Positions 9,001 through 12,000 of a stretch of 13,032 nucleotides of DNA are shown piece by piece; the stretch's first letter is position 1, and each line of letters starts with the position of its first letter. Source of the stretch: a virus (lineage: Duplodnaviria; Heunggongvirae; Uroviricota; Caudoviricetes); IMG/VR virus record IMGVR_UViG_2541047174_000010, positions 1 through 13,032 of that record; one strand, 5' to 3'. A program made the position numbers.

Positions 9001-12000
9001 TGATGCCGTGGATTGACCCTGTTAAGGAGGCTGAGGCCTGGAAAATTCAGATTCGTGGTGGAGCAGCGACAGAATCAGACTGGGTACGTGCAGGTGGTCG
9101 TAATCCGGATGATGTCAAACGTCGGCGCAAGGCCGAAATTGATGAAAACCGCAAGCTGGATCTGGTATTTGATACCGATCCGGCCAGTGATAAAGGAGGC
9201 AGCAGTGCCGCAACGAAACGACAGGAGCCGCAGCACACCGACGACCAGTCCGAAGAATAATTCCTGGTTCAGGATGCAGGCTGGTCACCAGAGTGACGCG
9301 GATATTTATATTTATGACGAGATTGGTTTCTGGGGTGTTACAGCGAAGCAGTTTATCAGTGATCTGAATGCACTGGGCGATATCACCCACATTAATCTCA
9401 ATATCAATTCACCGGGTGGCGATGTCTTTGAAGGCATCGCCATTTTTAATGCACTGAAAACACATGGTGCGTCCATTACCGTTTATGTCGACGGTGTGGC
9501 GGCGTCAATGGCGTCGGTCATTGCGATGGTGGGAAAACCGGTCATTATGCCGGAAAACTCCTTCATGATGATTCATAAACCATTTGGCTTTACGGGCGGT
9601 GATGCGGAGGACATGCGCACCTATGCCGACCTGCTCGATAAAGTTGAGGCGGTTCTGTTACCCGCTTATGCACAGAAAACCGGGAAAACCACCGATGAAA
9701 TTGCTGCCATGCTGGCGGATGAAACCTGGATGTCCGGTGCCGAATGTCTGGCACACGGATTTGCTGACCAGGTGACACCCGCTGTTGAGGCAATGGCATG
9801 TATTCAGTCAAAACGTACAGAGGAATTTAAAAAGATGCCGGAATCCATCCGAAACATGATTACTCCGCCACGCAACAGTGCCCCGCGTGATACCACAGTG
9901 ACAATCCCTGCACCGGCGGTAACAGAACCATCACCGGTACCGGCAGTGTCTGATGAGGCGACCATTCGCGCCCGCGTTATGGCTGAGCAGAAAGCCCGCA
10001 TGTCAGGCATTAACCATCTGTTTGCCATGTTCGGCGGTCGCTATCAGACGCTTCAGGCACAGTGCGTGGCTGATCCTGACTGTTCGCTGGAAATGGCCCG
10101 TGAACGTCTGCTGAATGAAATGGGCAAGGAGTCCTCGCCGACCAACAAAAATACACCGGCCCATATTTATGCCGGAAACGGCAATTTTGTGGGGGACGGG
10201 ATCCGCCAGGCGATGCTGGCCCGTGCCGGATTTGAAAATGTCGAGAAGGATAACGCCTATAACGGGATGACCCTGCGTGAATGGGCTCGCATGTCACTGA
10301 CGGAGCGCGGTATTGGGGTGGCCAGTTATAACCCCATGCAGATGGTCGGGCTGGCGCTGACGCACAGCACCTCTGATTTTGGCAATATTCTGCTGGATGT
10401 GTCGAACAAGGGGCTGATCCAGGGCTGGGAGGAATCAGAAGAAACCTTCCAGAAGTGGACCCGTAAGGGACGCCTGTCAGACTTCAAAACAGCGTATCGC
10501 GTGGGGATGGGCGGTTTTGGTTCTCTGCGCCAGGTTCGTGAGGGGGCGGAGTATAAATACATCACCACCTCAGATCGCAAGGAGACCATTGCACTGGCCA
10601 CTTACGGGGAGATTTTCTCCATCACCCGCCAGGCCATTATCAATGATGATCTGAATATGCTGGTGGACGTGCCGATGAAGATGGGGCGTGCGGCGAAGGC
10701 AACGATTGGTGACCTGGTCTACAAGGTGCTGACGGATAACCCGAAACTGTCCGACGGTAAGGCGCTGTTCCATGCCGATCACAAAAATATTGCCACCGGG
10801 GGGATCTCCGTTTCCGGACTGGATGCGGCCCGTCAGATGATGCGCCTGCAGAAAGAAGGCGATCGTGCCCTGAATATCCGTCCGGCCTTTATGCTGGTAC
10901 CGGTGGCACTGGAGACGGTGGCGAACCAGACCATCAAATCGGCCAGTGTGAAAGGGGCGGATGCAAACGCCGGTGTCATTAACCCTATCCAGAACTTTGC
11001 TGAGGTGATTGCAGAAGCGCGTCTTGATGCGGCAGACCCGAAAACCTGGTATCTGGCGGCGGCACAGGGCACTGACACCATTGAAGTGGCCTGGCTGGAT
11101 GGTGTGGACACGCCATACATTGATCAGCAGGAAGGTTTCACCACTGACGGCATTGCCACAAAAATCCGTATTGATGCCGGAGTGGCACCACTTGACTGGC
11201 GCGGGCTGGTGCGTTCGTCGGTGGCCTGATAACCGCGTTATCACAATCACTGCCCGAAAGGGCTTTTTTTATGCCTGAAAAACAGCCCCACAGGGGCTGT
11301 CCGGAGAAACAGCATTATGGCGAAAAATTTTGTACAGGACGGTACCACCATTGAACTGGTGAATGCCGGAGATCAGACCATCCTGAGCGGTGCTGCGGTG
11401 GTGGTCGGCAGTATGGTGGCCGTGGCCATTACCGATATTCCTGCCGGTGAGGCCGGTGACGGTTTTGCCGAAGGCGTGTTCCTGCTGCCCAAACAGTCTG
11501 CTGACGACATTCAGTCCGGCGCGGTGGTTTATCTGAAGGACGGGGTTGTGCAGCTGGCTGCAGACGGTGCGGTGGCAGCGGGGGTAGCCTGGGAAAATGC
11601 CCCTGCAAACAGCGCCACTGTGGCGGTAAAAATCAATGTCTGATCTGTTTACGCGAATGTGTTGCCGGATGGACGTGGCGACCGTTCGGGTGATGGGCAA
11701 ACAGGCGGAGATTAACGGCGTCGTGTACGACGTGATGCCGGAGGAAGAGTCCGCGGAGATGGGGGCGCTTTCGGGCAGCCAGTTGTCACTGGTGGTGTTT
11801 TCAGCCCGGTACCGTCCGGCCCGTCATGATGTTGTTGTGTTTGCGGGGCGCACACTGACGGTGACCCGTTATGACACGTACAACGGTAAACCCCGGATTT
11901 TTGTCGAACAGGAATGAGTATGGCAATAAAAGGTCTGGCGCAGGCCATGAAAAATCTGGATGCAATTGATCGCCGTGCCGTTCCCCGGGCCTCTGCCACG

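Follow-up and report, generated by a model that had tools for sequence, protein, structure and literature searches.

The window, a stretch of 13,032 nt from a virus of the Caudoviricetes, encodes in one frame a ClpP-like prohead protease, a scaffold-like segment and a major capsid protein. We put at about 90% the probability that a lambdoid prophage here carries a 'tripartite' head gene of the Gifsy-2 type with protease-driven maturation, identity and mechanism taken together. The gene belongs, without being unusual in it, to a prophage fusion family that is well documented, and is, as such, already known; new here are the correction of its start codon and signs in the sequence of a second translation start inside the gene.

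As read from the window sequence, the open frame runs on the forward strand from ATG 9274 to TGA 11227-11229 (651 codons); with its probable upstream start, the product reaches 674 aa (73.3 kDa). Two family models match over the full length: NF045540, with 992.5 bits against a cut-off of 475 (residues 9-649, in 651-aa numbering, on profile positions 2-651 of 652), and PHROG 133 (residues 1-650 of the same numbering on positions 12-667 of 668). Nothing material in the window protein differs from either family, and the NF045540 model, which begins approximately 30 residues into the 674-aa form, leaves the N-terminal extension uncovered. RefSeq names near-identical E. coli proteins 'ClpP-like prohead protease/major capsid protein fusion protein'. 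The original prediction that protease and capsid protein share one polypeptide is therefore confirmed, by this name, by NF045540, by the Pfam domains and by the conservation of a single open frame. The gene, its parts and its neighbours are as follows:

7751..9260, + strand: lambda-family portal gene, with a +1 frameshift at AATTTTTTCC (8774-8783); TIGR01539 and Phage_portal_2 match in two frames
9194..9199, + strand: Shine-Dalgarno sequence AGGAGG of the fusion gene, 5-nt spacer to GTG 9205, within the 3' end of the portal gene
9205..11229, + strand: probable full coding sequence of the ClpP-like prohead protease/scaffold-like segment/major capsid protein fusion (NF045540, PHROG 133, identity to Gifsy-2)
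9205..9273, + strand: N-terminal extension with an S-W-F/Y motif, recognized from homologue conservation and unseen in the original prediction
9298..9777, + strand: ClpP-type (peptidase S14-like) head-maturation protease domain (Pfam, NF045542, alignment to ClpP structures)
9859..9951, + strand: Pro/Thr/Ala/Val-rich hypervariable linker (low identity, variable length, pLDDT <50)
9952..10128, + strand: conserved helical segment (AF2 helices, conservation), with a putative scaffold role
10129..10161, + strand: variable S/P/T/N loop (residues 309-319 of the 674-aa form), delimited by regional conservation; candidate maturation-cleavage region, the position of the cut being presumptive
10162..10344, + strand: conserved GNGN segment (conservation by region)
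10345..11226, + strand: major capsid protein domain, Mu gpT-like, of the HK97-fold family by homology (Pfam, profile matches)
11252..11270, + strand: terminator-like hairpin GCCC-GAAA-GGGC followed by T7, after the capsid gene (read by eye)
11317..11643, + strand: head decoration (cement) protein gene, 108 aa (Pfam Phage_cement_2, E = 6.6e-19)

Domains of the fusion protein

The domain searches by which the original prediction proposed to check itself were both positive (CLP_protease; Phage_capsid_4 and Mu-like_gpT). On the N-terminal side, Pfam CLP_protease covers residues 23-168 (651-aa numbering; E = 5.8e-36), and the dedicated model NF045542, 'head maturation protease, ClpP-related', reached 215.8 bits against a cut-off of 120. 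The predicted ClpP-type serine and histidine blocks are borne out by Pfam and by alignment to solved ClpP structures, whose catalytic residues align with the serine at 9505-9507 named in the original prediction (TCA, in GVAASMAS), the histidine at 9574-9576 (MMIHKP) and the aspartate at 9766-9768 (GFAD), that is Ser101/His124/Asp188 in 674-aa numbering. A PDB sequence search with the whole protein returned ClpP chains only. Scores on the models for ClpP proper were far below cut-off, namely 61.6 bits versus 308.6 for the cellular ClpP equivalog TIGR00493 and 42-80 bits versus 228-361 for the remaining equivalogs. Judged from its sequence, the protease is thus ClpP-related in fold and motifs and no ClpP orthologue, and annotations as 'Clp protease ClpP' are over-specific because the scores fall below these cut-offs.

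The low equivalog scores, and the replacement of Asp188 by Asn in 4/84 homologues, could be read as signs of a catalytically dead domain serving as internal scaffold only, with head maturation left to a protease of the host or absent. We regard this as very improbable, as the triad sits in canonical ClpP motifs and is kept almost throughout (Ser101 and His124 in 84/84 homologues, Asp188 in 80/84), and as the dedicated NF045542 model was passed with the score given above.

Downstream of the protease, the linker keeps on average 24% identity to its homologues, compared with 68-72% in the flanking domains, and the distance from Met211 to the next conserved block varies between 17 and 50 residues. 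The linker originally described as Pro/Ala-rich is indeed present, Pro/Thr/Ala/Val-rich and variable in length. The scaffold-like segment alone matched no family in a Pfam search; AF2 placed helices of moderate confidence at residues 251-274, 281-308, 328-340 and 357-366.

The capsid domain is recognized by Pfam Phage_capsid_4 over residues 358-648 (651-aa numbering; E = 5.9e-56) and by Mu-like_gpT (39.3 bits versus a cut-off of 20.1; E = 6.2e-10). A profile of this region matches the solved gpT-type capsid proteins 8rkc/8rkx (E = 3.6e-10) and 9jod (E = 2.6e-7); a PDB sequence search with the capsid half alone gave marginal matches, significance for the gpT type being reached through the profile only, and the alignments do not extend far enough to place the N-terminus of the mature capsid protein. 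Of the predicted 'about 350 aa' capsid domain, the capsid assignment stands and the length does not: a gpT-type domain of approximately 290 aa follows a conserved helical/GNGN region of approximately 130 aa. The structure predictions were of too low a quality to bear out the capsid fold or the domain boundaries, with a mean pLDDT of 51.5 for the full 674 aa under a 53-sequence alignment (capsid domain <50) and of 44.9 for the C-terminal 359 aa alone.

Integrity of the gene and of its neighbourhood

The portal gene lies directly upstream and the decoration gene directly downstream of the fusion. As the original prediction held, no separate scaffold or capsid gene was found between them, either among the open reading frames of the window or in family scans. 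A terminator is annotated in Ayreon and mEp213 at the place equivalent to the hairpin 11252..11270; a consensus terminator scan past the stop codon gave no match, the hairpin being missed because its stem has fewer than 5 pairs.

The same organization is widespread. The gene order terminase-W-portal-fusion-decoration is also found in F10, Fels-1, PSTCR8lys, mEp213 and Ayreon, and the order portal-fusion-decoration is identical in Gifsy-2, Fels-1, F10, mEp213, Ayreon, ASU11 and PSTCR8lys. Uninterrupted fusions were retrieved from 74 phage records by protein and 28 by DNA, from 2131/5426 complete E. coli genomes (about 40%) and from 75 further genome loci of many gammaproteobacterial genera (51-80% identity), and thousands of database proteins bear the fusion name.

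The original prediction named as its own refutation a frameshift or assembly error joining two genes. What could suggest such an artefact is that the contig is a draft assembly with one frameshift in the T-run of the portal gene, and that the closest relative switches within the fusion gene at 9706-9722, between apparent Ayreon-like and ASU11-like parents. However, both parents carry the full-length fusion, which is unbroken in all relatives examined (28 DNA records, 74 protein records and 84 aligned loci of 51-97% identity). Because these 84 homologues keep one frame, with linkers that vary in whole codons, an artificial join of separate protease and capsid genes is excluded for practical purposes. 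As for the mosaic junction itself, mis-assembly was considered and judged unlikely, since the closest parents share only the 17 nt of 9706-9722, too short a stretch for a k-mer-mediated chimera to be expected.

A further question is raised by the portal gene, which is 98.9% identical to that of Ayreon with one gap, all relatives reading AGTTTTTCC where the window reads AATTTTTTCC (8774-8783). The source record likewise splits the portal into open reading frames of 374 and 120 aa. If real, this frameshift means that the prophage cannot make heads and that the fusion gene is not currently used; the intact fusion frame could then be a relic, decaying in a defective prophage that forms no capsids. 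We consider this unlikely, though well short of negligible: the change sits in a homopolymer run of a draft assembly, where it may be a sequencing error, the other head and tail genes of the window are all unbroken, and on each side of the crossover the fusion gene shares 99-100% identity with sequences of functional phages. Programmed frameshifting in the T-run was also considered and rejected, as the shift needed is +1 and not -1 and the extra base occurs in no relative. The frameshift bears on particle formation by the Stx-phage-like source prophage.

Two possible translation starts

The predicted frame of 9274-11229 is open as described, whereas its start codon and its length of 651 aa are probably wrong. 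Upstream of 9274, the same frame stays open back to 9013. ATG 9274 has no Shine-Dalgarno sequence, with a duplex energy of -2.2 kcal/mol compared with -11.6 kcal/mol at GTG 9205, where the arrangement of AGGAGG and start codon is common to Ayreon, ASU11, mEp213 and Kp4865-4. The Trp codon 9265-9267 is kept in 84/84 homologues, and the preceding serine is encoded by AGY codons 34 times and by TCN codons 33 times, a split which indicates that selection acts on the protein. Finally, the codon matching 9274 is ATG in just 48 of the 69 scored homologues, Gifsy-2, Fels-1 and F10 reading ATC or ATT. Since AGGAGG is present, the invariant Trp lies upstream of 9274 and ATG 9274 is often missing, the true start is very probably GTG 9205, rather than ATG 9274. 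From this codon the coding sequence overlaps the final 56 nt of the portal gene, and the source contig record also carries a 674-aa gene call.

The original prediction reported no convincing internal ribosome-binding site and start. A candidate has now been found, directly after the protease domain:

9811..9837, + strand: candidate internal translation-initiation region, with AAA 9811-9813, AGGA 9821-9824, a 10-nt spacer and ATG 9835-9837
9835..11229, + strand: putative nested open reading frame for a protease-less product of linker, scaffold-like segment and capsid protein (464 aa, 50.5 kDa), proposed from the conserved initiation region

ATG 9835 encodes Met211 of the 674-aa form (Met188 in 651-aa numbering), a position held by Met in 84/84 homologues. 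At codon 9820-9822 the amino acid may be E, K or Q and yet the codon is NAG in 84/84, when NAG use across the gene is 41% for E, 34% for K and 74% for Q, so that the AGGA is invariant through the choice of codons; the neighbouring Lys is AAA in 73/73. Synonymous diversity reaches its gene-wide minimum at this site (0.62-0.64 versus a mean of 1.00, s.d. 0.077), the four lowest windows of the gene all falling within residues 196-212. The internal Shine-Dalgarno energy is -6.3, compared with -3.7 expected, and the region is AT-rich and weakly structured. A scan of viral contigs retrieved close relatives only (75-97% identity), and the codon tests gained no diversity from it. We would give slightly better than even odds that the conserved AGGA 9821-9824 and ATG 9835 yield a second, protease-less scaffold-capsid product of 464 aa, and place at evens the broader proposal that the entire NF045540 family consists of two-product nested genes, for the 674-aa chain and for a protease-less scaffold-capsid protein.

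The main competitor is translation from the 5' start only, which would bring one protease/scaffold segment per capsid subunit (1 : 1) and leave the internal AGGA...ATG to some other constraint; this might be a translational pause or another constraint at the RNA or protein level. We rate it somewhat below even odds. Beside the AGGAGG of the 5' start, with its 5-nt spacer and -11.6 kcal/mol, the internal ribosome-binding site is much weaker, with AGGA only, a rather long spacer of 10 nt and about -6 kcal/mol; Met has one codon, so that its invariance alone cannot separate selection on protein from selection on RNA, and the Met-Pro pair could be kept for protein reasons. Moreover, the Gifsy-2 work is said, in its abstract, to treat the gene as a single composite coding region. 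Less easily accommodated by a single product are the G at the third base of the E/K/Q codon in every homologue, despite the 34-41% NAG use for E and K, the uniform Lys codon next to it, the coincidence of the four lowest synonymous windows with residues 196-212 and the AT-rich, unstructured character of the site. Nested protease/scaffold genes also recur among dsDNA viruses, as in lambda C/Nu3, Mu I/Z and herpesvirus UL26/UL26.5.

Even if used, the internal start precedes the scaffold-like segment and would not by itself give the mature capsid protein, so that proteolysis would still be needed. Where the original prediction offered autoproteolysis or an internal start as the source of the mature subunit, proteolytic maturation is supported by the Gifsy-2 precedent, and the internal start has gained a candidate that is insufficient alone. 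As to its origin, the site could be the retained ribosome-binding site of an ancestral stand-alone scaffold-capsid gene of the HK97 gp5 type, later fused to different proteases. Two findings agree with this: the window has a natural crossover between protease and scaffold-capsid parts, and a sister family, NF045541, carries a different protease.

Head assembly and known systems

The fusion itself is of little moment, as it already has its catalogue entry and its RefSeq name and occurs in some 40% of the complete genomes of E. coli. Records of it are nevertheless inconsistent ('Clp protease ClpP', 'Nu3', 'terminase protein', 'scaffold protein', 'major capsid protein') and vary in start codon; for annotation, the evidence favours the upstream start overlapping the portal gene. 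If the internal start is real, the ratio of the two starts would set the protease content per procapsid, which would account for the control of protease dosage despite the 1 : 1 stoichiometry that the gene seemingly forces, and a widespread head gene would join the nested protease/scaffold systems, with the capsid protein attached too.

By homology to Gifsy-2, we infer the following pathway of assembly, maturation, expansion and decoration. From its N- to its C-terminus, the single frame would supply a ClpP-fold serine protease, a Pro-rich linker with a helical scaffold-like segment, and a Mu-gpT-type capsid protein. Translation would begin at GTG 9205 within the end of the portal gene, as ribosome-binding site and conservation suggest, and the polypeptides would assemble together on the portal into a procapsid of T=7 geometry with protease and scaffold parts directed inwards. 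The protease would next excise both the scaffold part and its own domain, so that a capsid subunit of approximately 32-39 kDa remains; the shell would expand as DNA is packaged, and the 108-aa decoration protein would cement it in the form of trimers. With the internal start, protease would enter sub-stoichiometrically, like nested lambda C/Nu3. The nested protease/scaffold scheme has been documented for lambda, HSV-1 and HFTV1 (bioRxiv 10.64898/2026.09.13.751334).

The family was reportedly first studied in Salmonella phage Gifsy-2. The closest characterized relative is the Gifsy-2 'tripartite capsid gene' (Effantin et al. 2010), STM1034.3n in NC_010393. The two fusion proteins are 62% identical over 669 residues, with three segments in matching order and with the Trp motif, catalytic triad, Met-Pro and GNGN block in common. 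Their neighbours match as well, with lambda-type terminase, W-like protein and portal upstream and the decoration gene downstream; the Gifsy-2 decoration protein (107/108 aa) is 54% identical to the 108-aa protein of the window, in the equivalent position. The window gene differs in starting with GTG where Gifsy-2 has ATG, in placing 23 codons, rather than 33, before 'Met24', in its Pro-rich linker and in a shorter loop ahead of the GNGN block. The Gifsy-2 capsid has trimeric decoration at its 3-fold axes (PMC8538268) and T=7 geometry (PMC8814770). Release of the mature capsid protein by proteolysis is likewise known, through citing papers, for Gifsy-2 only. This precedent supports, by analogy, proteolytic maturation for the window gene; several papers citing the Gifsy-2 work gave no details of processing. 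Fusions of ClpP and gpT of approximately 700 aa also occur in Paracoccus prophages (PMC6536676).

The NF045541 family ('prohead protease/major capsid protein fusion protein', e.g. Ralstonia phage YO041_1 and Shewanella phage 1/44) is homologous in its scaffold-like and capsid part. On this model the window protein scored 417.9 bits over residues 190-648, below the cut-off of 525; reciprocally, protein L172 reached 308 bits with the NF045540 model, in a match that covers position 197 onwards. As in the window, an in-frame Met and an SD-like sequence are found in both examples where protease and linker meet. Unlike that of the window, the N-terminal protease of this family is not ClpP-like.

Compared with lambda C/Nu3/E/D, the layout of the head module is shared (terminase, W, portal, protease-scaffold, decoration and capsid functions), both types use a trimeric cement protein, and the proposed in-frame start after the protease domain parallels Nu3 nested in C. 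However, the lambda gpC protease is of the SppA/S49 type, whereas that of the window is ClpP-type, scoring 22.6 bits on TIGR00706 SppA_dom against a cut-off of 155.45. Similarly, lambda gpE is encoded by a separate gene with D before E, while in the window an in-frame fusion takes in the capsid domain, and the decoration gene comes after it.

With respect to HK97, no separate prohead protease gene of that family was found between the portal gene and the capsid domain; gp4 is a separate gene product of a different fold family (S78), whereas the protease of the window is fused and ClpP-like. HK97 also relies on covalent chainmail without a decoration protein, in contrast to the cement protein gene of the window. 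The likeness lies in gp5, a capsid protein with an N-terminal scaffold-like segment that the phage protease cuts off inside the procapsid, and to which the putative nested product of 464 aa would correspond directly.

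One open frame for protease and capsid

The window is the entire contig AVSA01000052.1 (13,032 bp) of the draft assembly GCA_000462645.2. From ATG 9274 to TGA 11227–11229, 651 codons remain open, and the domain search proposed with the original prediction retrieved both halves of the protease–capsid polypeptide that it had described: Pfam places CLP_protease at residues 23–168 (E 5.8e-36) and Phage_capsid_4 at residues 358–648 (E 5.9e-56; 651-aa numbering), and Mu-like_gpT also passes its cut-off. When compared with the PDB by phmmer, the N-terminal part aligned with many solved ClpP chains, the triad positions being taken by Ser 9505–9507 (GVAASMAS), the very serine predicted to be catalytic, His 9574–9576 (MMIHKP) and Asp 9766–9768 (GFAD). 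Across homologues the Ser and His are invariant, whereas 4 of 84, among them locus L006 (Providencia phage PSTCR8lys), have Asn in place of the Asp.

A lambda-type head and tail module surrounds the ORF, in the following order:

Terminase small (DUF1441) and large subunits
W-like ORF
Lambda-family portal gene, 7751–9260 (stop codon 9258–9260)
Fusion ORF, ending at 11229
Hairpin (4-bp GC) followed by T7, 11252–11270, directly after the capsid stop codon; Ayreon and mEp213 have terminators annotated here
Second hairpin, CAGCCCC-ACA-GGGGCTG, just 5' of the decoration gene's GGAG RBS (11283–11316)
Decoration gene, from 11317, encoding a 108-aa Phage_cement_2 protein
Gifsy-2-family, gpZ and gpU homologues

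As originally noted, no candidate for a separate scaffold or capsid gene was found between the portal stop and the decoration gene. Elsewhere in the window, a 645-aa ORF (308–2245) with DUF1737, SASA (sialate O-acetylesterase) and DUF6645 domains is the NanS-p-type esterase gene, which in phage ASU11 directly follows stx2AB. Since the toxin genes would end at about the point where the contig begins, the window is compatible with either presence or absence of stx in this prophage.

The portal gene is split, residues 1–341 lying in one frame and residues 341–500 in the next. At 8774–8783, the window reads CTGAATTTTTTCC versus CTGAGTTTTTCC in Ayreon and other relatives (AATTTTTTCC versus AGTTTTTCC in all relatives), and Ayreon is otherwise 98.9% identical to the window portal, with a single gap. 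Either this is a sequencing error, as may happen at a homopolymer in a draft contig, or it marks a genuine portal pseudogene and a defective prophage; if real, the prophage would be unable to make heads.

Membership of a known fusion family

The protein matches end to end the NCBIfam model NF045540, ‘ClpP-like prohead protease/major capsid protein fusion protein’ (992.5 bits versus a cut-off of 475), the name under which E. coli copies appear in RefSeq; it also passes the cut-off of NF045542 (‘head maturation protease, ClpP-related’) and matches PHROG 133 over its full length. Genuine ClpP models are far from being reached (e.g. 61.6 versus 308.6 bits), and on these scores the protease is ClpP-related, not ClpP. 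In public records, homologues are named ‘Clp protease ClpP’, ‘head-tail preconnector protein Nu3’, ‘protease C’, ‘scaffold protein’, ‘major capsid protein’ or even ‘terminase protein’; since the fusion protein reaches neither the ClpP nor the SppA equivalog cut-offs, some of these labels are incorrect or too specific.

The Gifsy-2 protein is 62% identical over 669 residues, in an identical gene context and with decoration proteins 54% identical. The fusion as first described is confirmed, and its interpretation supported. Gifsy-2, studied experimentally by Effantin et al., is the precedent for such fusions: its protein reportedly comprises an N-terminal ClpP-like protease, a C-terminal capsid protein and a middle domain of approximately 200 residues with a possible scaffolding role. 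Paracoccus prophages encode the same ClpP and gpT fusion, of approximately 700 aa (PMC6536676). Given the curated model, the RefSeq name and these two precedents, the fusion gene is already known, an ordinary representative of a family that has been catalogued.

Megablast retrieved the 1.96-kb ORF from 28 phage records, 12 of them 95–97% identical (Stx2 phages, ASU11, VT1-Sakai, CP-1639) and 16 approximately 81% identical (mEp460, Ayreon, cdtI and others). With tblastn (E ≤ 1e-60), 74 phage records covered at least 80% of the protein, including Fels-1 (63%), Gifsy-2 (61.8%) and Pseudomonas phage F10 (57.5%). A 4.2-kb query from portal to decoration gene was matched in 2131 of 5426 complete E. 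coli genomes, full-length homologues number thousands in a large protein database, and a scan of one genome per species yielded 80 loci (51–80% identity) in Escherichia, Klebsiella, Rahnella, Proteus, Providencia, Morganella, Xenorhabdus, Pasteurella, Shewanella, Psychromonas, Pseudomonas and others. An artificial joining of two genes by a frameshift or assembly error is ruled out, since relatives carry the same fusion and all 84 aligned full-length copies keep a single frame through the linker, whose length differs by whole codons.

The gene is itself mosaic: the window is approximately 99% identical to Ayreon up to 9705, and 99–100% identical to Stx2 phage ASU11 from 9723 onward, the crossover falling within 17 nt (9706–9722) in the C-terminal part of the protease domain. 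Terminase, W, portal and most of the protease domain lie on the Ayreon-like (mEp460-like) side; the end of the protease, scaffold, capsid, decoration and tail genes lie on the ASU11-like side. The catalytic triad is itself of dual ancestry, with Ser and His contributed by one lineage and Asp by the other.

A probable 5' start and a candidate internal start

The start originally assigned, ATG 9274, is probably not used: it lacks a Shine–Dalgarno (SD) sequence (−2.2 kcal/mol), is ATG in just 48 of 69 scored sequences, and corresponds to ATC or ATT in Gifsy-2, Fels-1 and F10, where the annotated CDS starts 32–33 codons upstream. In frame, 23 codons 5' of it, GTG 9205 is preceded by AGGAGG (9194–9199; 5-nt spacer, −11.6 kcal/mol), an arrangement common to Ayreon, ASU11, mEp213 and Kp4865-4. 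An S-W-F/Y motif is encoded in this frame downstream of the portal stop and upstream of 9274. Its Trp (9265–9267) is invariant (84/84), and its Ser is written with AGY codons in 34 cases and with TCN codons in 33, a mixture that marks selection at the protein level. The gene caller of the source record also calls a 674-aa product. Because of this SD, the conserved upstream Trp and the 674-aa call, the CDS is most likely 9205–11229 (674 aa, 73.3 kDa), its first 56 nt being shared with the end of the portal gene. Public records of the family disagree on the start, with products ranging from 648 to 707 aa.

Segments of the protein (674-aa numbering)
1–23: N-terminal extension
~32–191: ClpP-like protease (Ser101, His124, Asp188)
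197–210: helix
211–212: Met-Pro, invariant
219–249: Pro/Thr/Ala/Val-rich linker (mean identity 24%)
250–308: conserved helical segment
309–319: variable S/P/T/N loop (indels in Gifsy-2 and Fels-1)
320–380: conserved segment (G-N-G-N motif, 324–327)
381–674: gpT-type capsid domain

A profile of residues 212–674 matched the solved gpT-type capsid proteins 8rkc/8rkx (E 3.6e-10). If maturation cleavage left a product beginning near residue 319, its mass would be 38.7 kDa, or 31.9 kDa if it began at 381.

No convincing internal ribosome-binding site and start had been found originally; comparison of homologues now supplies a candidate, an AGGA with ATG 9835 (Met211, or Met188 in the 651-aa numbering). 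Among the internal start codons common to nine diverse homologues, it alone is accompanied in every one by an SD-like sequence of −6 kcal/mol or stronger. Both Met211 and the following Pro are invariant (84/84), and may be so for protein reasons. Five positions upstream of the Met, codon 9820–9822 stands for Glu (62), Lys (13) or Gln (9), always as NAG, and is nearly always followed by GAN, leaving an invariant AGGA 9–10 nt 5' of the ATG (register shifted in two sequences); in the same genes NAG accounts for just 41% of Glu and 34% of Lys codons, and among 26 E/K/Q-dominated alignment columns only this one is at 100% NAG. Lys203 is AAA in 73 of 73. The four windows of lowest relative synonymous diversity all fall at residues 196–212 (0.62–0.64; next-lowest 0.82; gene mean 1.00, sd 0.077). 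SD energy is −6.3 kcal/mol, whereas synonymous resampling of the six codons upstream gives an expectation of −3.7. By this measure the site belongs to the top 6% of codon positions overall, and in 63 of 84 sequences it comes first or second among the internal ATGs. A+T content is 62% in this region versus 46% for the gene, and folding is weak (−3.5 versus −8.2 kcal/mol). These comparisons show nucleotide-level selection of the kind expected of a translation-initiation region, and we put the probability of an internal translation start at ATG 9835 at roughly 0.5–0.6. The internal SD is short, and its spacing to the ATG long.

Proposed maturation and comparison with known systems

The product from ATG 9835 would be a 464-aa (50.5 kDa) linker–scaffold–capsid chain without protease. 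Even so, proteolysis would still be needed, because the scaffold-like segment must still be cut off. Domain content, catalytic residues, gene context, family membership and the two initiation signals are read from the sequence itself. By homology to Gifsy-2, HK97 and lambda, the portal would be the site at which the chains co-assemble, forming a T=7 procapsid that encloses the protease and scaffold parts; the ClpP-like protease would be activated, and protease, linker and scaffold then removed. The capsid would expand upon packaging and be stabilized by trimers of the 108-aa cement protein.

The corrected 5' start and the nested-start evidence are modest additions to a known family. In the sister fusion family NF045541, the protease is different (non-ClpP) and the scaffold–capsid part is homologous to that of the window. 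In two members, Ralstonia phage YO041_1 (locus L172, nt 2582) and Shewanella phage 1/44 (locus L171, nt 2105), an SD-like sequence precedes an in-frame Met where the protease gives way to a Pro/Ala-rich linker, although the alignment is uncertain; these two cases are a weak hint that protease–capsid fusions in general may contain nested starts. The putative 464-aa product would be the formal equivalent of HK97 gp5, and its reading frame would lie within that of the protease-bearing chain, just as lambda Nu3 lies within C, a nested scheme found in lambda, HSV-1 and an archaeal virus (bioRxiv 10.64898/2026.09.13.751334).
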